A DNA stretch of 63,293 bases, filler included, from Stramenopiles sp. TOSAG23-3 (Eukaryota), in assembly GCA_900128585.1 (NCBI GenBank). It is 15 parts of 15 records of this genome, joined end to end, with 100 filler letters (N's around TTAATTAATTAA, not from the genome) between each part and the next. Parts side by side here need not be neighbours in the genome. Positions count along the whole stretch, not along the records: positions 37,611 to 42,858 come from LT643570.1; 14 more parts are not named here. The stretch is one strand, 5' to 3'. The notes below the pieces were generated by a model. That model saw only the letters and a program-made list of their open reading frames with translations, was not told the DNA's origin and made no database searches. Within the stretch, counting starts at the first letter, position 1, and every line of letters begins with the position of its first letter. Below are positions 21,531 through 42,958 of the stretch, piece by piece. The translations under genes and the position numbers were made by a program.

Positions 21531-24500
21531 ACCTACTCTTTGCCAAAGAAGTAGGGTTGTTGGCGACATTCATCGCTACGGGTAATGAAGTAAAAGCCGA
21601 AGAAGCGAACGATGCTTTGAATACCATGGCAAGTATCATTGAAACGTGCAAGTGTATACAAATACATTTACAGCATTTCGATGCAAGAGGCGTGAACACG
21701 ACTTTCAACGACGCTAAAACAAAATTAAAAAGTGTTTGTGATGATCTTCGACGTTTTTTAGAGGAATTTAAGTTACTGGATGCAAAGTATGGGCCAAAAA
21801 ATGCACAGGATGAAACGAAGAACCACACAGGATATTCCGAGGCAAAAGAAGGGGACCGTGCGAAACCTGATACAAGCGCCTCCGTCGCCGGTACAACCGT
21901 AGATACCATCGCAACAATTGGTGCGAACGCGGTATCCAACGAGGCGGAGAAAGAACTTGACAAAATCAGTGGGACAATATCATTGGCAGCAAACATAGCG
22001 ATGAAAATTCACATAGTCGCTCTTGAAATTGCAAGTCATTTACGAATCGTGGGCAACAGTATTGACATGGTCCTTGGAAAATTGCAATTAGCACACACAG
22101 GCGCGCAGGTGGCGCACGATCATTTGAACGATTCCATCTCGTTCGTTACAAAAGCTTCTACCCGCCTCGAAAATGTATTGAAACAAGGGGTGAAAGTAAA
22201 AGAGAGCAAACTTTCGAACTTGACCATTGCGTTGGAAGAATCGCAGGAAGAGGTACTCGAACACATTGAAATAGCATTCAAACAAATTGGCGTTTCAATA
22301 AATAAATTGGCTGAAGATACGGCAACTAGCTCAGTGGGACAATTTTATGGCATTTTAAATCAAGCCTCTAACATTTTAAACCCTTTGCTTGAAAAAGCTA
22401 AGGAATGGATGGAAAAGAAGGATGATGAAGAAGGGGTGGACAGAATCCTTGCAAGTTTAACCGACGCCTCTACTAACCAATTGGTGTCATTAAAAGAAGT
22501 GTGCAAAGCGTACGCAGAAACAAGTGCCAAGAAGCTGGAAGCCAATGCGATTCAGATGGCAGATGGTGCCGCAGCTGAAGCCATGGCATCCGCTGGAATA
22601 TCTAGTGAAACAGCGCATGCTGTGATTGATGAGGCAAAGAAAATGGCAACATTTGCGTTTCGCGGTGCAAAACAAATGCTTGACGGTGAAAAGTGGCGTT
22701 GTCGAGAACAGGCAGCATGGTTTACATTGCGTTTTCAAGAGCGCCTCCGTGACGAAAATCGAAAAGACGCAGCGGTAGTGGAAAATGATGTCCAGCAAAT
22801 GGTTGTGCGACGACGTGCTTTAGAATCTTCAAAAGGCATTCAAGCATTATTTAAAAACCCTGACGCTGCTATGCAAGTGCAAAAGGCCCTGGAAGCGAAG
22901 TGGGAAGACGAAAAAGATCGGGTGGAGCGTGAGTTGAAGGAATGCCAAAACGAATTAGATGCTATATTGGAGGAGTACCAAGAAGCTTTGAAAGATGAAG
23001 CTTTGAACGGAGGTGTTCGTGACGATAATATGCCGGAGGGGTTGGAGTTAGAAGAGGTCGACGATGACGACGGTGTAAGTACGGTTAACAATGGGAAAAA
23101 AACAGAATTAGCACAAAATGGAAAAATTCAAGGCAAGCATGCTGCAAAGAAAGCCCCAGCGTCAACGGGAACGGCTGTGGTGAGTGCTTTGCCTAGAACA
23201 AAAAAGAAAAAGCGAAAAAACAAACGATCCTCCGTTGAAATCAAAGCCGAATACGATGCAAAAAAAGGAAAATTGAAAGTCAAGTTAAACAATTGCGGGG
23301 ACGTGTCGTCGCAGTTAGGTGTTGTGCTCGACTTTTTAGACGGAATGCAAAATACACTGTACAAGATGGATGCCAAACTTGATAAAATACAAGACACATT
23401 AAACGATGTGCAAAGCGATGTAAAACGTTTGCTTGGACGTTCAATGAAGGAAGCGATAACGTACCATAAAACGCACGAAGCGAAGAGGCGCGAGACACTG
23501 CGGCGTGCAGTGTACGTCCCAATCAAGTGTTGGACGAAGGGCGATTGGGACCCTGACGGGTCGTTTCGTATTAAGTCCAGCAAGGACAAGGAAAAGGATA
23601 CGAAAGACTTGATGAAAGAGGTGGAAAACTTTTTGACAAATAGTGACAAATCTGTCATGTTAATTCACGGCTGGGCAGGGGCGGGAAAGTCAACGTTTGC
23701 TTCTCGTTTGATCAACAAATTATGGGAAAAGTACGAATCGAAAACAGACCAATCACAATTTCTCCCACTGCTTTGCAACCTCCCTGCGTTGAAAAACCCG
23801 CTCACATCGTTGGTGGACAACGTTCTGCAGCAAGTCTTTGGCAGAATTGGCGAGCCTCAAATGAGCAAGTTTCGAGAGGAGGTCCAAAGCGGCACACACT
23901 TGCCTCTGTTTGTGCTGGATGGTTACGATGAGCTCCGCCGAGAATTGTTCGGGTGCAATTTGTATGACACGAACGATTTGGAGCAGTATCGCAAGATGAC
24001 GGAAGATGATGCACAGACACCACATCTTCCCAAGGTGATATACTTATGTAGAACAGAGTTTATTGCGTCAAGTCCTAAAACTTACCATGATTGGTTTTCT
24101 CCAATCGTGACGGACGACTCTTCCGATGCAAAAAAGTGGTTGACGGAACGATTTATTGCACCGTTTGATACAAGCCAAAGAGAAGAATATTTCGCGTCAC
24201 GGGTGACGCGGAATTTCGCCAACATAGTGTGCGAGACATTGAGTTTGGATGTGAAACATTTGCAAATGGTGAACGGTGGAAGTGAACAGGAACAAGAAGA
24301 TGGCAGCAATGGCGATATCTCCGACTTCCAAGGAGGATATGAATCGCTTGAAGAACAAAATTTGCTGGAGTTTGTGGGGTGTTCAAATATCGAACGCGTC
24401 GAAAATATTCGAAACAAGTACGACCCGATCCCTAACGATACAAACGAGCCCTCCCCTGACGTCATAGACTTGCATACAAAACAAAGGGGATTCATTGTAT

Positions 24501-26797
24501 CGATTCTGTTTGCCACGTTACACATTAACGGCCTGAGTCAATCCCAAGAAGATCTGCATAAAGTATGGGCCCGAGTGAAAGACCTTGCGTTGAAAGGAGA
24601 AAGTTCGGTATGGCCTGTCATGGAATTTATCGAGGCGTTCAAGGACATGCCTGAATTAACGAACTTAACACATACCCCATTCATGCTGAAAATTTGCACC
24701 GATGTGATTGATCAGCTACGCGCCATGAAAACGACACCAGCGCTGATAAAAAAACGCGTGATTCTTGCGGATAAGGAGGGGTCTAAACCAGCAGCGATGG
24801 GGAATGGCAACCACAACGGTGGGACAACGATGCATCACGGGCCGGAAGACATTAAGACGCAGCAAACGTCGAATGATCTGTGGAAACGTATCAAAGATTC
24901 GGGAGTGCTCAAACTAGAAGTGTTGAAACGGGTTCAAGAATGGATTGAGAAGGGTTCCGACGATCGAGTTAAGCCTGTGCAATTGGATCCTGACATGATT
25001 CCCGTATTACGTCGTACGCCCATTGACCGTTACCATATTTACCAAACATTTATCCAGCACTATATTCTGAGCGAATGTAGTCGAAAACAGTCGGAGGCAA
25101 TATCTGCAATTGAGCTAGAGACGGAAGCACATGAATTTGCAACGCAAATGGCGCTAGAAATGACGATAGAGAATGTGTCAAAAGTGGAATACGAGCAAGG
25201 CATTCATCGTTTTCGGGGGGATACGCGGTGGGATAAGTTCTTGGGCAGTCATGACGTGGCGCTGGAAGATATTCGACGTGTTGCTCCCGTGCAAAGGAGC
25301 AACGGTGTGTATTCATTTATTCATAAAAGTGTTCAAGAATTTTTGACTGCATCTAAAGTGGTAAAAGAAGTCACATACGAATGTCGAGCTACGCTGATGG
25401 CAGTTGACCAACTCGAAACGTTTGTAAGATTAATTGGCGAAGCACGTCAGAAGGGGGTTTTCAATGCAAATGTTAAAGGCAAGACTCACGAGGAAGTTAT
25501 AGAGGAGATGGCGATAGTCTTGATCAAACTTAAAGCAAGTAAAACGATCAAACTCAAAGCAAGGGGTACACAAAAGAAGCTTCACGGAAGCACAGCGGCG
25601 GCAGATGTACGGAAATGCGAAATAGGTCGTGCATGGGAAGAAAAAATAGAGGAAGACAAAAAAACATCGTTTTTGAAAAGTGGGAAAGCAGAAGAAACCA
25701 TGTCAGGTCAATGCAAGCGAGTGTTTCAAGCGTATGAAGCGTTATCCCCTTCAGCACTCAATCACTTAAATTTGGGTGGTGAGGAAGCGACATCAGACTT
25801 TTTAATTGACTGTCTTTTAGGTGAGGACCAAACGTTTTCCCAAAGCTTGCACATTGCTTCTCAATTGGCATCGACATGTCGCCCTCTTGGGAAACCGAAG
25901 TTAGCAAAACTTCTTGCTAACGTGCGGGATTTGTATTTGACGCCGTTGCCTAAACGACCCGCAGGAGGCGCATTGTTGCATGAAGCAGCTAGACAAGGAA
26001 ATACAAGCATAATTTCAAGGGTCATTGAGTTTTTGAAGATAGATACTACAGGTGGAAATGTACAAGAAAAGGACGCTAAAATAACGGCTTTTTTGGATAT
26101 GCGGGATAATCAAGATCGAACGCCTTTATTCGTTGCAGCGCAAGAGGGGAATATCCAAGCGCTTATGTGCCTTCTGGATGCAGGCGCTAACCCTGATATT
26201 TATGCAACGGCGAAGAAATTGCACGTAGATGTTTGGGGGTCAATCTTAGACCCTAATATAAATGATGAGGACATTAAAAAAGAGAGTATGCATTTGTCGA
26301 AGGCGACCAGCAAGCGCTGGTTTAATTTGAATGATATGACATTTAAGATGCGCAAGAAAGATAGTACCGCAAACGCAGCATTTTGTGGCCTCATAATGGT
26401 TCCCGATCTAAAAGTAAGAATTAAGCAACAAGTAGATGGGCCCATATATCATTACGAAGCCGAAATTGAAGGCGATGCGGTCACTGTGATTGGATGGATG
26501 GAATGCACAGATGGATGGAAAGAGCACATACACAAAATTGCGACTAATAGGAAAAAGAAGGACGAGGCTTATTCATTTGTCGATGAAAATATTCATGGTG
26601 TTTGCTTGAACTTCCCCCCATGTATTAATAATTACAACTTCAAACACGTACATTATGGTACTAGAAAAGAATTTGATAGTTATAGCGAAACTTTCGAAAC
26701 TAAATGGAAAGTGCAGTGTTACATCAATTCCTCTTCTGGTGATTGCGGTTATTCTATATTTAAAAAGATACACAATTCTGAATTCTGGAGAGAGAGA
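21531..26797 (+). CDS. Large STAND/NACHT NTPase (NLR-like): helical/coiled-coil N-terminus, NACHT, winged helix, ankyrin repeats, possible SPRY-like C-terminus; partial at both ends
   Basis: Walker A HGWAGAGKSTF (~23669), Walker B LFVLDGYDE (~23909), KVIYLCRTEF, TPFML, YSFIHKSVQEFLTA (~25310), ankyrin LLHEAARQGN and RTPLFVAAQEGNIQALMCLLDAGANPD. Confidence 0.88.
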
Positions 26798-34731: not shown

Positions 34732-37510
34732 TTACTTTCCCTCCGCCCTCGTGCCATTCCCAATCAACCCTTTCAAGTACTCGCTGGTCTTCTCGCCCGT
34801 CTCGTTTACTAAATCCAAGAACGACCCATCTTTCTTTATCAACTCTTGGGGCGAGCCGAATTGGTCGACCGTTCCTTCGTTGAGCACAAGAATGAGGTCA
34901 CACCCCACGACTGTGTGAAGCCGGTGCGCAATAATTATCATGGTACAGTTCTGAAACGCTTCCCGGATAGTTTCGCCTATCAACGCGTCGGTTGCCATGT
35001 CCACGGAGGCAGTCGCTTCGTCCAGGGCTATTATTTTTGTGCCTCGCAACAGCGCCCTTGCAAAGCAAACCAATTGGCACTGGCCCTGCGAAAAGTTTCC
35101 CCCACCCTCTTCCACCAGTGTTTCCAGCTGTTTTGGGAGCTCTTTGATGAATTCGGCCAGGTGAACTTTCGCAAGGACTCCCCAGATTTCAGCGTCCGTT
35201 TTTTCTTCGAACGGGTCCAGGTTTGAACGAAGGGTTCCGATGAACAGAATCGGGTCTTGCGGAATAATCGAAAGTTTGCTCCGCAGTTGGTGCAGCTCCA
35301 CTGCCGACGTCTCGACGCCGTCAATCTTTATGCTCCCCCTGATTTCGTCCAGCATCCGCCAGAGGCACAGCGTCAGGCTTGACTTCCCGCTCCCGGTCCT
35401 GCCACAGATTCCAAGCTTTTTCCCGCCGGGAAGGGCGAAGGAGACGCCCTTGAGCACCTCCGGCAGTCCTGCGCGGTAGCGAGCCCTGACGTTCTTGAAC
35501 AATATTTCCCCCTGCGCAGGCCAACTTTTGCTAGGAACGTCTTTGCTGGTGTTCTTGCCTTTTTCGTTCGCCTCCACTTTCACATTTTCCTCGAATGCCG
35601 TCAGCCTCTCCACCGACGTCATCAATGCCTCGCTCTCGGCAATCAGGCGGGTGCCGTACTGAAACACCCCGCCCATCTGCAAGGCGTACACAATGCAGAG
35701 GGCGGACAGGGAAGGCGAAATGCTGCTCCGCATGCAAGTGCAAATGAGTGCGGTGACCGTCACAATGCAGGTGGTGATGAGGTCCAGCCGAAAACCAATC
35801 CAGCGGTTCGCCATGCCAAAGGCCCAATTTGCCCTGCTTGCATTGTCACTGTAGGCTCTTTCCTGCTGCAAAAACCTTCCCATGTACTTGAACGCCCGAA
35901 TGGTGCACAGGCCCCTTGCTGTGGACCCAATGTGCCCAAACAGTGGGCCCTTGGACATGTTGTCCATCCGTTTCAGCTGTCGAACCACGTGACGAAAGTG
36001 AAGCGCCAAGTACGCGTACACGACGACGAGCGGGATCAGGGGAATCAAAAACCACGTTGTGATTATGGATATAAGAATCACGCTGGCAACGCACCGGCAG
36101 AGGAGTGTGTAGCACTGCTCGGTCGTCCCGGGCAGAAGGGTGTCGATGACGTCCAAGTCGGAGCTAAAGTTTGACAGGATGCGACCCATTGGCGTCACAT
36201 CGAAGAAGCTCATGGCGCCCTGCAAAACCCGTCGAAACACGCGGTCGTGCAGCCCTCGGCTCGCCACAAGGGCGTGAAGATGGTAAAATGCGGACGAGGC
36301 CATGAAAATGAGGCTCACGGCGCAGCCTAGACCAAAGTAAATGCCTGCGTACTTTGCCTGGGTTAGGCCGGCAAACGCCCGCTCGGTCCATTTGGCAAGG
36401 AACCAGTCGGTCGCGACAGTGGCAAACTGGTAGGAAAAGCTCAGCAAAATGTAGCAGATGAACACTGGCCTCCCCCCTGCGGCACGGATCCAATTTTTCA
36501 CGGTATCTATGGACACGCTCCCGCTCTTTCGCTTCTCTTCTTCTATCAGCTTGCCCTTTTCCAGCTTCGCGGACAGCGCGCTTTTGCTGTCACCCTCGTC
36601 CACGCTCAAGTTGATCCCTGCAGTGGTCAACTCCCCCGAAATGGACCGTGCCCTCAGCTGAGACTCCGAAATGGAGGAGGTGGACGACAAGGCTCGAAGG
36701 TCAGAATTTCTTCTCTCTTCCTCCTCGTTCTCGGATGTTTCGCCGTTGTCCATCAACGAATCGAACAGGGAATGGACCTCGTCGTACGTTCCCTCCTTAA
36801 CGATTTTCCCCTTCTCCAAAACTGCGATGGAATCGCACTCATGCAGGAACTGAGTCTGGTGCGTCACAAGAACGCGCGTTTTCCCATCCATCAAAGGCCC
36901 GCATATTGCTTGTTCCATTAGGTGTTTCCCGACATGGACGTCCACCGCAGACAATGGATCGTCCAGAAGAACAATGTCCGAGTCGGAATACACGGCCCGG
37001 GCCAGAGAAATCCTCGCCTTTTGCCCTCCGCTCAAGTTGACGCCCCTCTCCCCAATTTCTGTCAGGTCCCCGGCCGGGAGGGCGTCCAAGTCCGTGTCCA
37101 GGCAGCAGGCCGCAAGAACTTGGAGGTACCGCCCCTTGTCCATCTTCAAGCCGAACAGAATGTTTTCTTGAACGGTGCCGTTAAAAATCCAACTTTCTTG
37201 CATGCAAATCGCGACCGAACCCTTCATTTCGACGCCCTGGCCTGAAACCTGTTCCATGTGGCCAAGCATGCTGCCCACCAGGAGCGAGGATTTCCCAGAC
37301 CCGACCGGTCCGACGATTCCCACCAACGCCCCCGCTTTGACCGTCAAATCAATGTTCTCGAGCCGCCCGCTGTCGTTCGAATCGACCTGTTTCGGCTCTT
37401 CCTTCGTCTCTCTGCTCGCCGCCGCTTTCCCCTTTGCGTTCGTTCCCACGGCCGTTGCCGCGTTCGCGGAGACCAGAGACCACTCAAAGGTTCCCTTAAC
37501 CTTGATGGCG
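34732..37510 (-). CDS. ABC transporter, ABCC/MRP subfamily (NBD1-TMD2-NBD2; 5' truncated)
   Basis: GPVGSGKSS, EIGERGVNLSGGQKARISLARA, LLDDPLSAVD, FFDVTPMGRIL, CGRTGSGKSS, IIPQDP, NFSQGQ, LDEATASVD, IAHRL. Confidence 0.96.
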
Positions 37511-37630
37511 NNNNNNNNNNNNNNNNNNNNNNNNNNNNNNNNNNNNNNNNNNNNTTAATTAATTAANNNNNNNNNNNNNNNNNNNNNNNNNNNNNNNNNN
37601 NNNNNNNNNNTATTTTTTGGGTTAAAAGAA

Positions 37631-40600
37631 TTAGATTCCAAGGAACAACATTGACACCATCAACACTCCGCATAAGTACAGCTGTGGCCGGTAATGACTG
37701 GCAGCGCTCAATTCATTCGGCGCGGCAGTGGTCGAAGGGCTTCCGGCCGGTGACGGGCTATCACCAGATGGCGACGGGCTTCCTGCTGGAGATGGCGACG
37801 GGCTTCCAGAGGCCGCACACATTCTATCTGCTGTCGCAGAACCCGCGCTGCTTTCCACTTCGGTGGTAGTGTTGCATATGGTCCAATTCGTGCAGGTGTT
37901 CTGGTTGGACGCAGCAGAAAATTGCCCGCTGGGGCATGCTACGCAGGTACGGTCTGCGCTGCCTGTACCGTTGGCCGCTATCTTTTGGCCCGCGACGCAA
38001 GTTGTCCACGCGGTGCACGAACCTTCGTTAGCATCCGCAGAATATTTTCCAGCCGTACAACTACTGCAAACACGATTCGAGGTACTCGTTCCGTTTGTAG
38101 AGATGTGCTGTCCGGTGGTGCAATTTGTCCACGGTGTACATGAATCTTCGTTAGCACTCGCAGAAAATGTCTCGGCAGCGCAAGGCGTGCATACTCGGTC
38201 GGTGATATTGGTGGCATTTTGAGAAACATAGTACCCAACAGAACAATTTTTCCAAGCGTGACACGTTCTGCTAGAGGTGTTGCGATAGACATTAGCGTCA
38301 ATACATTTACATACTAGTGTGTTGAGGTGCGAAAGAGTACATCCTGCCTCGCCTGTTACACTGTTGGGTGGTGCAGCAGCCCCCGGATTGCATGTTTTGT
38401 TGCACACCAAATTGGCGTGGGTATTTTGGAATACATTTGTACCCATACTAGTCACAGATTCAGGGATATTGATAGATTTCAGGCTGGTGCATCCCAAGAA
38501 TGCTTCCTTGTTAATGCTGCTCACAGAATCCCCCAAATTCACAGATTTCAGGCTGGTGCAATCCTTGAATGCGTAATCACCCAGACTGCCTACAGAGTGT
38601 CCAATGACAATCGATGTCAAGCTGTTGCAACCCTTGAACGCATAGTCACCAATAGTCGTCACCGAATCTGAGATGTTCACCGAAGCAAGGCTGGTGCACC
38701 CAAGGAATGCCTGCTCACCGATCACAGTCACAGAATCCGGAATATTTATCGTTGTTAAGCCGGTTTCCCTGAATAATTGATAATTAATCGTGTTGATAGA
38801 GTCTGGGATGGTCACCGATGCCAAACTAGAGCAAAGCACAAATACACTATTCCCCATACTGGTCACCGAGTTCGGGATATTCACTGATGTCAAGTTACAA
38901 AAACAGAAGGCACCGGTACCAATGCTTGTCACAGAATCAGGGATACTCAACGAAGAAAGGCCGGTGCATCCGTAGAATGCTTCGTTGCTAATAGCACTGA
39001 CAGAGCCCGGGATTGCCACTGATTTTAGGCTGGTGCATCCCTTGAATGCTTGTGGTCCAATACTGGTATCCGTGATATTAATGTCTACGTGCCCACTGCC
39101 GTCTGGTGTATAGAGGCACCCAGCTGCGGCAGGTCGAAATAAAACGGCAACAACAAACGCACAGAATACAATTCGCACGTTATTCTTTAACAAGAAGAGA
39201 CGAAGCATACTAAATCGCAACCGACGCTCCATTCCAAACCATGTCGATGCCATCAACACTCCGTAGAGGTATATACTTGGCCCGGAACGACTGGCAGCGC
39301 TTAATTCATTAGGCACATCGGTGGTGGAAGCATTGGCTGCCGGGGATGGCGAGCTTCCTGCCGGCGATGGCGAACTTCCTGCCGGTGACGGGCTATCACC
39401 AGATGGCGAAGGACTTCCGGCCAAAGCGCATACTCTATCCGCGGTGGCAGAACCTGCGCTGCTTTCCACTTCGGTGGTAGCGTTGCATGCAGTCCAATTC
39501 GTGCAGGTGTTCTGGTTGGACGCGGTAGAGAATTTCCCAGTCGGGCAAGCTTCGCAGGTACGGTCGATGGATGCAGTCCCGTTCGCGGCTATCTTCTGGC
39601 CTGCTACGCACTGGGTCCACGCGGTGCAAGAGAAAGCGTTGGCGGTGGTGGAATACTTCCCGACAGTGCAGCTGCTGCATACACGGTCGGTGTTATTGGT
39701 TCCGTTGGCAGAGATGCGATAGCCGGCGGTGCAATTCGTCCAAGCGGTGCATGAATCTTCGTTGGCAGTCGCGGAATATGCTCCAGTACCGCAAGGTGCG
39801 CATACTCGGTCAGTGAAATTGGTTCCATTCGAGGAAACGTACTCTCCTGCTGTGCAAGAGGTCCATGGAGAACATGATAGAGGGGTGGGAGGGGGGGGCA
39901 AAAGAGCCTCGCTTACGTCTTCTCTAAATTCACCACTGGGGCAGTCATCACTTGTACCACACAAAACTCCATAATTTGTGTTTGCCCGAGCAGAGCATGT
40001 CCCAGCAAAAGGGGGGACGCTGCATGGTTTGGCGCCACATCCGCTGGGGGTTTCATATTTGTTGGTTCCGCCTGAACCATCGTACCCGTAGAAATTATTC
40101 GCCGTTTCATCTATATTTGTGAAGTTGGTATTGACCAGTGTGATGGATGGGGTACCATGAGATGAATGTTTCCGTGTCATAATCTGATGCCCATGATGGC
40201 TTGTATCTGCGTCGTTCTTAATAAATGTACATTCTCTAATGAACATAGTAGCATTCCAATAAAGATAAATTCCACCCCCACCATATTTAGCATCACTTCC
40301 CGTCGTTTGTTTATTATGTTCAAATAATGTTCGTGTCATTTTCAAAGTACTGCCCCGTTGACCAGCACCATATATTTCAATACCTCCTCCTACATTTACT
40401 GCTTCGTTCATAGTAAATAAATCATTGATCATTGTACTACCCTCCTTGAGATAGTATAAATTCATTGCACCCCCACTGTGACCTGCCGTGTTTTTAACGT
40501 ATTGGACATTATAGCTATTGAGTATTCCATCCCATAAGGAGAGAGCACCACCATAAAGAATAGCACTGTTCCTTATAAATTTTGTATTCGTCAAAGAGAC

Positions 40601-41017
40601 CAAAACATTTTTAGTGGTTTCATCATTAGCGTAGATAGCGCCTCCGTAGATAGCGCCACTGTTGTTATAAAACACACAATGGGTAATATTCAAATGGCCA
40701 GCGAAGTTATTAATATAAATAGAACCGCCATGGACATCACCAGTAGGGGCACCCGCTGTCATGTTCAACCATGTCAGTGTCAACGTATGCGCACCGTTCA
40801 CTTTAAAGTGCCGTGCGTCGCTTGCTGCAACCAACGTCGTGTACGTATTCTCGTTTCCCGTGATACTTAAATCACCGTCTACAAATACTTCACCCGACAT
40901 AGGCGCGCAGTCATTTGAAAGCGTAAACACCCCACTCGTATCGGCACAGTTCCACTCCCCCGCCAGTGCAACCCCAACGAAGCTGGCGACAAATAAAACA
41001 CGGGAAATGATTTCCAT
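37631..41017 (-). CDS. Cell-surface protein ORF made of two complete modules: [signal, PMP-like beta-helix, Cys-rich TNFR/GCC-like repeats, SP linker, GPI-like tail] then [signal, BspA/LRR_5 repeats, Cys-rich repeats, SP linker, GPI-like tail]
   Basis: ATG 41017 MEIISRVLFVASFVGVALA; FxxN/GGAI repeats; C..WT.C..G repeats; BspA repeats (IPDSVTSIG..AF..CTSL); two homologous tails NELSAAS..LY/CGVLM. Confidence 0.88.
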   Translation of the reverse strand: MEIISRVLFVASFVGVALAGEWNCADTSGVFTLSNDCAPMSGEVFVDGDLSITGNENTYTTLVAASDARHFKVNGAHTLTLTWLNMTAGAPTGDVHGGSIYINNFAGHLNITHCVFYNNSGAIYGGAIYANDETTKNVLVSLTNTKFIRNSAILYGGALSLWDGILNSYNVQYVKNTAGHSGGAMNLYYLKEGSTMINDLFTMNEAVNVGGGIEIYGAGQRGSTLKMTRTLFEHNKQTTGSDAKYGGGGIYLYWNATMFIRECTFIKNDADTSHHGHQIMTRKHSSHGTPSITLVNTNFTNIDETANNFYGYDGSGGTNKYETPSGCGAKPCSVPPFAGTCSARANTNYGVLCGTSDDCPSGEFREDVSEALLPPPPTPLSCSPWTSCTAGEYVSSNGTNFTDRVCAPCGTGAYSATANEDSCTAWTNCTAGYRISANGTNNTDRVCSSCTVGKYSTTANAFSCTAWTQCVAGQKIAANGTASIDRTCEACPTGKFSTASNQNTCTNWTACNATTEVESSAGSATADRVCALAGSPSPSGDSPSPAGSSPSPAGSSPSPAANASTTDVPNELSAASRSGPSIYLYGVLMASTWFGMERRLRFSMLRLFLLKNNVRIVFCAFVVAVLFRPAAAGCLYTPDGSGHVDINITDTSIGPQAFKGCTSLKSVAIPGSVSAISNEAFYGCTGLSSLSIPDSVTSIGTGAFCFCNLTSVNIPNSVTSMGNSVFVLCSSLASVTIPDSINTINYQLFRETGLTTINIPDSVTVIGEQAFLGCTSLASVNISDSVTTIGDYAFKGCNSLTSIVIGHSVGSLGDYAFKDCTSLKSVNLGDSVSSINKEAFLGCTSLKSINIPESVTSMGTNVFQNTHANLVCNKTCNPGAAAPPNSVTGEAGCTLSHLNTLVCKCIDANVYRNTSSRTCHAWKNCSVGYYVSQNATNITDRVCTPCAAETFSASANEDSCTPWTNCTTGQHISTNGTSTSNRVCSSCTAGKYSADANEGSCTAWTTCVAGQKIAANGTGSADRTCVACPSGQFSAASNQNTCTNWTICNTTTEVESSAGSATADRMCAASGSPSPSPAGSPSPSGDSPSPAGSPSTTAAPNELSAASHYRPQLYLCGVLMVSMLFLGI

Positions 41018-41084
41018 TTTTGAAAGCCTACGGGTACCCAACAGCAAAGTACGTCTTCTCGCTTTCTCTAACACCTGCAAGTAA

Positions 41085-41556
41085 GGCTGGTCTTAGAGCT
41101 GCGTGGGAGAGGGTTCTGTTGCAACGAACTCGACTTGCGTAAACTTCACGGGCGCTTATGCGAAGAACTGTCAGCGGCTGGTCTTAGAGCTGCGTGGTAA
41201 GAAGTCCGGTAAAGCGTTCGGTTGTTGCGTAAACTTCACGGGCGCTTATGCGAAAGTTACTAGGAGACTTAGAGAACTGTCAGCGGTTGCAGCGAACTCG
41301 AACAGCTACGCGAAAGTTTCTATAAAACTGTAGGCAAACGGTTGTTCTGCGAAAGTTTCTATAAAACTGGAACGGTGTTCTGCGAAAGCTTCTAAACACT
41401 GTAGGTAAACGGCGAGAAGACTTAAAGAACTGTCAGCGGCTTCGGTTGCAACGAACTCGAACAGGTACGCGAAAGTTTTTTATAAAACTGTAGGTAAACG
41501 TACTTCTGTGAAAGTTTCTATAAAACTGTAGGTAAACGGTGTTCTGTGAAAGTTCT
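41085..41556 (+). repeat. Complex mosaic tandem repeat (blocks GGCTGGTCTTAGAGCTGCGTGG, TTGCGTAAACTTCACGGGCGCTTATGCGAA, AGAACTGTCAGCGG, GCGAAAGTTTCTATAAAACTGTAGGTAAACG)
   Basis: Each block is read two or more times, in shuffled order. Confidence 0.88.
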
Positions 41557-42080
41557 GCGTTTCTCTTGTGAAGAAACTATTCTTTCATTGAAATGATAAC
41601 GGACTGCCCGAAAGGGATCTTATGCGCAAGTTGGAAAAAAAATGTTTGTCTATGATATAGCATCATGTCCGATAGGATCCGATCTGCGTGCATACTGTAC
41701 TTCATCGTAATTTTTACGCTCTATAGGATTAACGTCATCATAGCATGAACGGTCAATTAAATAAATGATGGGCGCCCTCTATTTCTATGTGCATACTATA
41801 CTTCATTGTATTCTAGGGAGATAACCTCCTGTTCCCCCACTATTACAGGCCTATAAGACCTTCTGTGTAAGCCTAGCTGATCTCGATTTAGAAATTTATT
41901 TTTTCATAATATACAAATACGTACATGGTCTTAATAATTAATTAAATAAATCATGAATTTCCCAGCGGAGTGCCTATTTTTTAAACATTAAAATAATTAG
42001 CATGCAGACAGCACTAAGTTTTGTAGTATTATAGCATATTCTCCTTTTACATGCTAAGTCGAGGAAAAGCGTCAAAGGTC

Positions 42081-42257
42081 GTCAAAGTTTTGTCAAAGTC
42101 ATTTAACATAGCCACAACAGGTTGTCAAAGATATCAAAGAGAAATTTATTGAGAAAACTTTTAACAAAAATAAACAAAAGAGTTTGCAGCATAGCAACCC
42201 TTTGATTTCTTTGACATAATGCTGTGGCCTGTTAAATGACTTTGACAAAACTTTGAC
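42081..42257. repeat. Imperfect inverted repeat, arms of about 58 bp (42081-42139 and 42200-42257), MITE-like
   Basis: GTCAAAGTTTTGTCAAAGTCATTTAACA..GCCACA..TGTCAAAGA.ATCAAAG pairs with its reverse complement across a 60-nt spacer. Confidence 0.88.
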
Positions 42258-42591
42258 AGCGTAAGTGGCCCGAAAACCTAGTGCCATACTCTTAAGAAAT
42301 TTACAGAAAAATAATACAAACCTTTTTGGAGTTAATCTCTATTTCATAGGCCGACATGAAAAAGTCGAGGAAAAGCGTCAAAGTTTTGTCAAAATTAGCA
42401 TCTTAGGCATTTTATTTCATCGCCCTATGAAATATGTTTTATTATACATTATAGTACAACAAACTGGCCCGACCGATGCCCATGGCGTGGCCCGATACTG
42501 CGCAGCAACCGTCCCTCTCTCGGTTTATATATTTTTTTACAAACCTTTGTTTTTTCGGACTATATATATAACCCAGATATCTTTATAAAAA

Positions 42592-42810
42592 ATGAGCATT
42601 TCATTCGAATTCACAGAAGACAAAATCCGAGACCCCGCAGAGCATGAGATCCGAATTCAAGCGGATAAACCGAATTCCTTCGGCAAAAAATTCGCCAACA
42701 CAACTTGGGAGGTCGTCTACAACGAAGTGAAGGAGGGGTACGACAAGGGCGAGTTCAAGGCGTACTACGAGGTACCTTATGCAGCGACGTATCCCACCGG
42801 CAGTGGCTGA
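42592..42810 (+). CDS. Small hypothetical protein, 72 aa
   Basis: ATG after AT-rich TATATATA..TTTATAAAAA; codon usage looks coding-like; no family recognised. Confidence 0.45.
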   Translation: MSISFEFTEDKIRDPAEHEIRIQADKPNSFGKKFANTTWEVVYNEVKEGYDKGEFKAYYEVPYAATYPTGSG

Positions 42811-42958
42811 ATCTGCTGGGGTGGCCGTGCATTCTGTTGTATGTGATTGGACTTCCCGNNNNNNNNNNNNNNNNNNNNNNNNNNNNNNNNNNNNNNNNNN
42901 NNTTAATTAATTAANNNNNNNNNNNNNNNNNNNNNNNNNNNNNNNNNNNNNNNNNNNN

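Follow-up and report, generated by a model that had tools for sequence, protein, structure and literature searches.

The window analysed here is a 63,293-nt stretch of DNA from Stramenopiles sp. TOSAG23-3 (GCA_900128585.1), and one of its contigs (LT643570.1) carries on the minus strand a single open reading frame (ORF) composed of two full units head to tail, each with a signal peptide, a head, a TNFR-like Cys-rich stalk, a Ser/Pro linker and a tail resembling a glycosylphosphatidylinositol (GPI) attachment signal. In all likelihood this fusion of two members of one surface-protein family is real and has been retained in evolution. Our preferred reading, to which we assign a probability of just under one half (about 0.47), is that the fusion chain would be processed into two surface proteins, as had been proposed in an earlier note on this DNA.

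Two complete units in one reading frame

The minus-strand frame is open over 37631..41080, and its first ATG, at 41017, gives a protein of 1128 amino acids (aa) that ends at a TAA at 37633-37631. The earlier note had claimed a single ORF with no stop between the units, and indeed 1128 codons run uninterrupted from 41017 to 37631. All the peptides quoted there were found as written in the translation, namely MEIISRVLFVASFVGVALAG at the N terminus, NELSAASRSGPSIYLYGVLMASTWFG as tail 1, MERRLRFSMLRLFLLKNNVRIVFCAFVVAVLFRPAAA as the internal signal, with GCLYTPDG following its cleavage site, and NELSAASHYRPQLYLCGVLMVSMLFLGI as tail 2, followed by the stop. The codon contrast between the unit ends can also be read directly, with GGA ATC TAA closing unit 2 and GGA ATG GAG at the homologous position of unit 1, and it is reinforced by the GGA ATG TAG of a single-unit relative, L002. 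Stalk, linker and tail are homologous in the two units, as had been suggested, with 137 of 214 residues identical (64%, E 1e-78). At the DNA level these cassettes are 72-75% identical, and the units are therefore too diverged to be explained by paralogue collapse.

Three hydrophobic peaks mark the protein, at residues 1-19, 613-634 and 1114-1128. The second is the strongest, and within it residues 616-626 of the internal signal reach a Kyte-Doolittle (KD) value of 3.35; tail 1 (IYLYGVLMASTWFG) is weaker, with a KD mean of <1.6 in an 11-residue window. Across the junction the order is a hydrophobic tail (IYLYGVLMASTWFGM), a basic loop (ERRLRFSMLRLFLLKNNVR) and a strongly hydrophobic core (IVFCAFVVAVLF) followed by a helix-breaking RP and then by A-A-A before G; the loop reads ERRLRFSMLR...K..R, its K and last R being extra in the window's version. 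Signal-peptidase sites are established to obey the -3/-1 rule, by which the N-terminal signal of unit 1 is likely cut after ALA (A-L-A before G). An anchor, a basic loop and an internal signal with small -3/-1 residues form the layout that had been likened to polyproteins split by signal peptidase; this likeness stands, and the same logic is found in two metagenome loci (L003 and L005) and three database proteins (P0180-P0182). By a rule-based reading, the tail of unit 2 consists of a small S-A-A, a polar 6-residue spacer (SHYRPQ) and 16 hydrophobic residues, and then the stop. Under the GPI rule the hydrophobic stretch ends the protein, unlike that of unit 1, which is not C-terminal.

The head of unit 1 is confirmed as a parallel beta-helix in its predicted structure. 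The AlphaFold model has a regular strand pattern, with blocks of predicted local distance difference test (pLDDT) values mostly of 81-97 at residues 21-270, ~61-88 at 271-320 and <50 at 324-380 (the stalk was modelled poorly), and every one of the best PDB matches listed by Foldseek is a beta-helix protein, with E values from 3.6e-4 upwards and low template-modelling scores of 0.27-0.40. Pfam gave no head family on unit 1 at E <= 0.01: the match to Chlam_PMP (PF02415) scored 15.4 bits (E 0.022), under the 20.6-bit threshold, and that to Beta_helix 18.7 bits (E 0.0015), likewise sub-threshold. Two relatives, L008 (38.6 bits) and P0180 (25 bits), do pass the Chlam_PMP threshold. Of the PMP-like beta-helix described in the earlier note, the fold is upheld by the model and its structural matches, and the PMP-repeat profile match is not.

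The BspA-type leucine-rich-repeat (LRR) head claimed for unit 2 is recovered by Pfam as LRR_5 (PF13306; 227.6 bits against a gathering score of 27.7 bits, E 4e-68, 2 stretches), with LRR_8 at 5.6e-14. Both stalks match TNFR_c6 (PF00020; threshold 29.4 bits) in 4 stretches, at 58.2 bits (E 1.1e-15) in unit 1 and 63.7 bits (E 2e-17) in unit 2. Among the 120 matches listed for unit 2, all are LRR_5 proteins and none has TNFR_c6; when the whole 1128-aa protein was compared with protein representatives, the best 150 of 370,077 were proteins of 1,998-7,983 aa matched via the LRR part. GC content at third codon positions differs within the gene, at 0.40 in the unit 1 head (39878-41017), 0.55 in the unit 1 stalk and tail (39233-39877) and 0.51 in both the head and the stalk of unit 2, a contrast that may reflect gene conversion among the conserved cassettes.

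A protein family with and without the junction

The two units belong to a family with a common plan, in which a signal peptide and a variable head are followed by a TNFR-like Cys-rich stalk, then by a Ser/Pro linker and, at the C terminus, by a GPI-attachment-like tail. Reuse of the stalk-plus-tail cassette with different heads, which the earlier note had put forward, is evident in this family, with beta-helix, BspA-type LRR, Kelch and Asp-box-like repeat heads. Six single-unit members (P0002, L014, L010, L008, L002 and L001) share the signal M[EK]IISRVLF.ASFVGVALAG/EWNC (a slash marks the cleavage point), a TNFR-like stalk, an SPSP linker and an N-x-L-S-A-A-S tail, and each has a stop at most 4 residues beyond the hydrophobic stretch. 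A metagenome scan with the cassette returned 20 loci, and the tail end was inspected in 12. In nine of these the frame stops at most 4 residues past the hydrophobic stretch (for example after ...WFCL, ...LFLGS, ...WCLGI or ...WFGM), in L003 and L005 it continues through ...STWFG-MERRL...-signal into a further head, and L007 lacks a tail in the corresponding frame. The two-unit ORF is the one place in the window where the tail motif was found.

The window, L003 and L005 have a connector in common: a tail ending in ...STWFGM, then ERRL[RQ][FL][STN], then the next signal peptide, kept in frame in the two loci between different heads. The junction of L003 reads ...STWFG-MERRLRLN-MLRPFLLKNNMRIVFFAFVVAVLFKPAAA-ACAYTPDNSGHVDIN..., and L005, whose ORF is open at both contig ends, encodes an Asp-box-like head, a stalk, ...STWFG-MERRLQFT-MLRLFLFASFIGFALAG-EWNC..., a beta-helix head and a further stalk. 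A search with an 80-aa junction peptide gave 67 candidates, of which three proteins, P0180-P0182, were listed at E <= 10; each starts with MASTWFGMERRLRFTMLRLFLFAS... and runs on into a beta-helix head, and one comes from a EukProt gene set. Residues 520-680 used as query returned the family members P0002, P0009 and P0028, and no junction-bearing protein among the matches of length 620-1974. The first head of L005 (L005:1-560, residues 1-185 of P0179) is built of ~35-40-residue repeats with SxNSGxxW, a motif that we take to resemble Asp-box/BNR repeats, and it has no Pfam match at E <= 1. In L003 (6596-6760) the stub of the second unit, described below, is followed by a purine-rich, low-complexity (GAA/GAAA)n microsatellite and an unrelated small gene.

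A check for sequence spanning the junction, suggested in the earlier note, gave a positive result with the L003 variant. Three independent contigs cross position 39232 without gaps at ~90% identity, with at least 79 letters below it and at least 40 above. Two of them, X2 record 22 and X3 record 28, come from one study's DNA runs, and the third, X15 record 4, comes from an RNA library belonging to a separate study. Their listed differences from the window (39200 A>G, 39210 C>T, 39212 A>T and 39215 T>A) are exactly those of L003, and the frame is kept. A loose end of X15 at 39189, joined by hand in frame, reads ...LFLFASFIGVALAG, which is of the L005/P0182 type, and was not counted as bridging. 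Joints such as 37737 to 39358 were rejected as deletions, being produced by paralogue contigs that fit one cassette and then the other at the 90% threshold. At least six diverged sequences, drawn from several sources of data, carry the junction, and its recurrence in diverged loci, proteins and independent contigs indicates that it is natural, effectively excluding chimera and collapse. The RR-containing loop is intact in each of the six junction sequences, as is the cleavage-type end (A-x-A or A-L-A/G-G) to the internal signal, and the three sequences that show the small S-A-A/S-type motif keep it as well.

The junction also bears the mark of constraint at the protein level. Over 64 codons of tail, connector and signal, the window and L003 differ by Sd 13.5 over S 45.5 synonymous sites and Nd 9.5 over N 146.5 nonsynonymous sites, a pN/pS of 0.22 (Fisher p 1.0e-4 on rounded counts), and for the linker and internal signal alone pN/pS is 0.28. 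No frame-breaking indel or stop was found across the junction in the window, L003 or L005.

Comparison with single-unit genes gives some insight into how the fusion may have arisen. L002, the closest single-unit relative, with a Kelch head and the same tail subtype, ends in ...ACA TGG TTT GGA ATG TAG, and at its stop position the window, L003 and L005 read ...GGA ATG GAG CGT CGG TTG.... Since GAG aligns with TAG, the E of MERRL occupies the former stop position. The 3' flank of L002 is unlike the connector, which places the left breakpoint at the stop codon and implies that the seven connector residues came from elsewhere; a source in the 3' flank of the upstream gene was dropped because the flank after the L002 TAG is dissimilar. 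The connector may instead derive from the end of a family 5' untranslated region (5'UTR), the last ~20 nt before the start codon, to which its similarity is weak (ERRLRFS-M vs TRRLSK-M). The internal signal of L005 and P0180-P0182, MLRLFLFASF[IV]G[VF]AL[AG]G/EW, is plainly homologous to the N-terminal M[EK]IISRVLF[VI]ASFVGVALAG/EW. In the window and L003 only its first six residues, MLRLFL, are found, followed by a different signal, LKNNVRIVFCAFVVAVLFRPAAA (LKNNVRIVF...), and it looks as if an LRR-type unit had replaced a beta-helix unit by recombination within the signal.

Four loci of 9-11 kb (L002, L003, L009 and L014) contain one family gene each, so two-unit genes are not simply neighbours in dense tandem arrays. 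The family also has a connector-free way of stacking heads: P0009 (1158 aa) and L004:3-3209 carry two beta-helix heads per ORF, with the first Cys-rich stalk joined straight to the mature start EWNC and neither tail nor signal between the heads. More distant relatives, L017:2-2203 and L018:1-2748, have TNFR_c6 and ephrin-receptor-like Cys-rich repeats and then an FGE-sulfatase (SUMF1-like) domain in place of the tail.

Proposed processing of the chain and other readings

If the chain is processed, the N-terminal signal would bring unit 1 into the endoplasmic reticulum, and translocation would be halted by tail 1 and the basic connector. The internal signal would then re-insert with its C-terminal end in the lumen, and signal peptidase would cut after A-A-A. 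Unit 2, with its LRR head, would be translocated and GPI-anchored at its own tail, while unit 1, with its beta-helix head, would be GPI-anchored via its now-internal signal or else retained by what is left of the hairpin. A single promoter and a single chain would in this way give two separately anchored surface proteins, and the conserved stalk/tail and signal sequences flanking the connector would let recombination swap heads. We infer the topology, both cleavages, the anchoring and the function from the sequence. A precedent for the anchoring of unit 1 is a DAF-hGH chimera in which, according to the available part of the report, an internal GPI signal still gave GPI-anchored DAF (Caras 1991, PMC2288913). 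The wider proposal is a little more tentative than processing itself. It holds that in this marine protist lineage a portable connector (a GPI tail, a basic ERRLRF loop and the next signal) may let signal peptidase and GPI transamidase yield at least two lipid-anchored receptors or adhesins, with recombination in the connector-flanking sequences stacking and swapping beta-helix, LRR, Kelch and Asp-box-like heads.

In regard to expression, unit 1 is preceded by sequence typical of the family, matching the region upstream of L014 by blastn at 82%, 79% and 85% over 244, 233 and 155 nt and that of L010 at 85% over 59 nt. Before unit 2, at a distance of 0 nt from unit 1, there is no such ~0.6-kb family region, and this unit appears to depend on the unit 1 promoter. 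A poly(A) RNA library (X16) yielded contigs that match the window letter for letter in the unit 2 LRR head (38685-38834 and 38874-39096) and the unit 1 stalk (39571-39721); DNA carry-over is possible in this library, and it has no cover at 39107-39352, where the junction lies.

Several observations weigh against processing into two anchored proteins. Tail 1, with ~14 residues and KD <1.6, is a doubtful stop-transfer segment. Unit 2 of L003 is a ~50-residue LRR stub with a stop (ATG TAA), which means that at least one copy can do without its downstream unit; the stub arose by a truncating rearrangement, or else the metagenome contig is chimeric. P0180-P0182 start at a Met inside the tail, which is compatible with an independent unit 2 product, and in the RNA runs no contig of the organism's own sequence lies over the junction. 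The signature of constraint has limits of its own: the window and L005 give pN/pS 0.34 over 40 codons (p = 0.07), the 8 codons of MERRLRFS alone give Sd 1 and Nd 2, too few sites for statistical power, and a pN/pS <1 would also be expected if tail and signal served separate products. The connector could have been spread by ectopic recombination between conserved flanks and not by selection. Finally, the signal peptide of Trypanosoma cruzi GP82, when moved internally, was not recognised by signal peptidase, in a construct that, as far as the available part of the source describes it, had no translocated domain ahead of the internal signal (PMC6513831).

The chain might instead stay whole as a two-headed membrane protein, with tail 1 and the internal signal forming a permanent hairpin or both lying in the lumen. 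We regard this as unlikely, though it fares best among the alternatives. The weak hydrophobicity of tail 1 would suit it, as would the existence of two-headed family members (P0009 and L004) and the uncut internal signal of GP82 in the available account (PMC6513831). However, P0009 and L004 have neither internal tail nor internal signal, so the family makes two-headed proteins without a connector, and the intact cleavage-type signal ends in all six junction sequences, with the S-A-A/S motif in the three that show it, speak against this reading.

Slightly less probable is that unit 2 is mainly made alone, from a transcript starting in the 3' part of unit 1 and translated from MASTWFG..., MERR... 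or MLRL..., with the open junction a tolerated by-product. The predicted proteins P0180-P0182 start exactly at MASTWFGMERRL, and 36 nt, ATGGCATCGAC[A/G]TGGTTTGGAATGGAGCGTCGGTTG, hardly vary among the window, L003 and L005; GP82 moreover tolerates N-terminal extensions before its signal peptide, in the constructs that the available text describes (PMC6513831). Yet the starts of P0180-P0182 are gene-caller choices on short contigs (the longest 792 and 871 nt, with none on record for P0180), the family upstream region is missing before unit 2, and an mRNA from the unit 1 start would still encode the fusion, unit 1 having no stop.

Less probable again is a fusion that has no processing function and was thrown up by frequent ectopic recombination in a multigene family that evolves fast, the product being neutral or in decay. 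Recombination in conserved flanks would indeed give differing heads on either side of a near-identical connector, the internal signal of the window and L003 has a composite look (MLRLFL, shared with the beta-helix type, then LKNNVRIVF...), and the stub of L003 fits with decay. Against this, the three loci show no frame break at a synonymous divergence of ~0.3 and a pN/pS of 0.22, and unit 2 of the window is intact over 533 codons and retains its LRR_5 match at E 4e-68.

Removal of the internal tail and signal by an intron, which would leave a two-headed protein like P0009, is improbable. A 168-nt in-frame GT...AG pair running from just after NELSAA to AAA/G, with a T-rich tract before the AG, is common to the window and L003, but the GT is absent in L005 (AGT = CAT), divergence inside the supposed intron is synonymous-biased, and long intron-free ORFs are the rule in this assembly. 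Unspliced RNA, which the earlier note had suggested looking for, was found in part: the RNA-library contig X15 record 4, of the L003 variant, is contiguous over 39153-39301 and thus unspliced through the donor, and the poly(A) run X16 lacks junction cover. A 26-nt intron (GTATGC at 39210 to TTAAAG, giving TTT AAA TAA) was rejected since L003 and the bridging contigs have AT in place of its GT. As for an assembly or amplification chimera or a collapse of paralogues, the high fragmentation of the assembly and a contig ending 20 nt past the stop are outweighed by the 72-75% identity of the cassettes and by diverged copies of the same junction in L003, L005, three database proteins and contigs of three other runs from two studies, and we consider it very unlikely.

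Setting of the gene and comparison with known systems

The window is a string of contigs in descending length (~5.3 kb down to 5.24 kb, then four of 1.0 kb), separated by N44-TTAATTAATTAA-N44 spacers (for example the N-runs 37511-37554 and 37567-37610). Because the spacers part unlinked contigs, genes on either side are not genomic neighbours. The two-unit gene lies on a 5.2-kb contig that terminates 20 nt past its stop codon, and the ABC transporter at 34732-37449, which in gene orientation lies to its right, sits on a different contig. The remaining contigs hold ordinary eukaryotic genes (MIF4G, RIO2, MA3, exostosin, NACHT, ABCC and arginase) in long intron-free ORFs; one, at 21533-26797 on the plus strand, is a 1755-codon ORF open at both contig ends with a NACHT/AAA NTPase domain at E 8.9e-9. 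An Rfam scan of the window gave 0 matches. Public occurrences of the stretch are mostly in seawater metagenomes and metatranscriptomes, and the host is a marine unicellular eukaryote. In the region upstream of the gene, 41085-41560 is taken up by 22-nt and 30-nt repeats that recur every 90-91 nt and by a ~144-nt unit whose copies are 83% identical, and metagenome contigs pile up at 41075-41197; this repeat region could be a promoter or 5'UTR module specific to the family, or else a small repeat element.

Table 1. Features of the two-unit gene and its contig, in coordinates of the window
Feature	Position	Strand	Basis
Contig carrying the two-unit gene	37611..42858	.	N-run table and sequence; N44-TTAATTAATTAA-N44 at its bounds, sequence beyond unlinked
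Family-typical upstream region (promoter or 5'UTR-like), with nested direct repeats D6, D8 and D9	41018..41655	-	blastn
Unit 1 N-terminal signal peptide, MEIISRVLFVASFVGVALA	40961..41017	-	Translation; hydrophobic residues 1-19; same signal in P0002 and L014
Unit 1 head, predicted right-handed parallel beta-helix, residues 20-380	39878..40960	-	AlphaFold model and Foldseek
Unit 1 stalk, TNFR/NGFR-type Cys-rich repeats, residues 381-530	39428..39877	-	Pfam TNFR_c6
Unit 1 Ser/Pro linker, (SPSPxG)n	39311..39427	-	Translation
Unit 1 GPI-signal-like tail, NELSAASRSGPSIYLYGVLMASTWFGM, internal here	39230..39310	-	Same tail type in L002, ending ...STWFGM and then TAG
Connector, ERRLRFS	39209..39229	-	First codon GAG (39229-39227) at the TAG stop position of L002; kept in L003, L005, P0180, P0181 and P0182
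Internal signal peptide, MLRLFLLKNNVRIVFCAFVVAVLFRPAAA	39122..39208	-	Predicted cleavage A632/G633, by the -3/-1 rule only
Unit 2 head, BspA-type leucine-rich repeats, residues ~633-900	38318..39121	-	Pfam; 69-nt repeat families D1 and D3
Unit 2 stalk, TNFR/NGFR-type Cys-rich repeats	37817..38266	-	Pfam TNFR_c6
Unit 2 Ser/Pro linker	37718..37816	-	Translation
Unit 2 C-terminal GPI-signal-like tail, NELSAASHYRPQLYLCGVLMVSMLFLGI, and TAA stop	37631..37717	-	Hydrophobic residues 1114-1128

The interest of the two-unit gene rests on its predicted cleavage. If processing occurs as proposed, two surface proteins would be co-expressed at a fixed 1:1 ratio from one promoter, and the family would have a simple genetic route for shuffling recognition heads on a constant stalk and anchor. 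The gene would also offer a natural test substrate for the handling of non-terminal signals by GPI transamidase, for weakly hydrophobic tails as stop-transfer segments, and for the proper treatment of such genes in automatic annotation, where they are split or truncated (as in P0180-P0182).

Our findings can be set beside several known systems. BspA-like LRR (LRR_5) surface proteins occur in Trichomonas, Entamoeba and many bacteria, and the LRR_5 match of the unit 2 head places it among them; it differs from them in standing on a TNFR-type stalk with a GPI-like tail, as the second unit of a fusion. Among prokaryotes, MXAN_5598 of Myxococcus xanthus is an apparent two-gene fusion with an internal MYXO-CTERM tag, whose N-terminal part is proposed to be processed and anchored (Guo, Haft & Wall 2025, PMC11980579). 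It shares with the protist gene an end-of-protein sorting tag placed in mid-protein, but it involves a myxosortase/sortase and not GPI transamidase, it belongs to another domain of life, and the available part of that paper does not mention an internal signal peptide (PMC11980579). The DAF-hGH chimera likewise has a mid-chain GPI-attachment signal followed by another secretory protein; in contrast to the natural arrangement of the protist, which recurs in a gene family, it is artificial, and its downstream part has, in the excerpted description, no signal peptide of its own (in the first construct) or GPI tail (PMC2288913). A keyword search of open-access papers and bioRxiv, which is weak evidence of absence, found no natural eukaryotic gene in which a GPI-type tail is fused to a following signal peptide.

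The closest parallel lies in enveloped RNA viruses, for which it is textbook knowledge that several membrane proteins are released from one chain by cuts at internal signal peptides. Host signal peptidase cuts the envelope-glycoprotein polyproteins of flaviviruses and bunyaviruses, such as the Gn-Gc precursor, at internal signals, and the order of elements is the same as in the protist gene: a lumenal ectodomain, a hydrophobic anchor, a short basic cytosolic loop, an internal signal with small -3/-1 residues and the next ectodomain. The upstream anchor of the viral polyproteins is a true transmembrane segment, whereas that of the protist gene is a GPI-attachment-like tail; the protist gene is moreover a cellular one, and its units are paralogous and complete secretory proteins. 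If our preferred reading is true, a natural cellular gene family would combine cutting at an internal signal with an internal GPI signal, and eukaryotic cells would be using a viral trick. Such a family would be a eukaryotic, GPI-based counterpart of both the viral glycoprotein polyproteins and the prokaryotic fusions with internal sorting tags.

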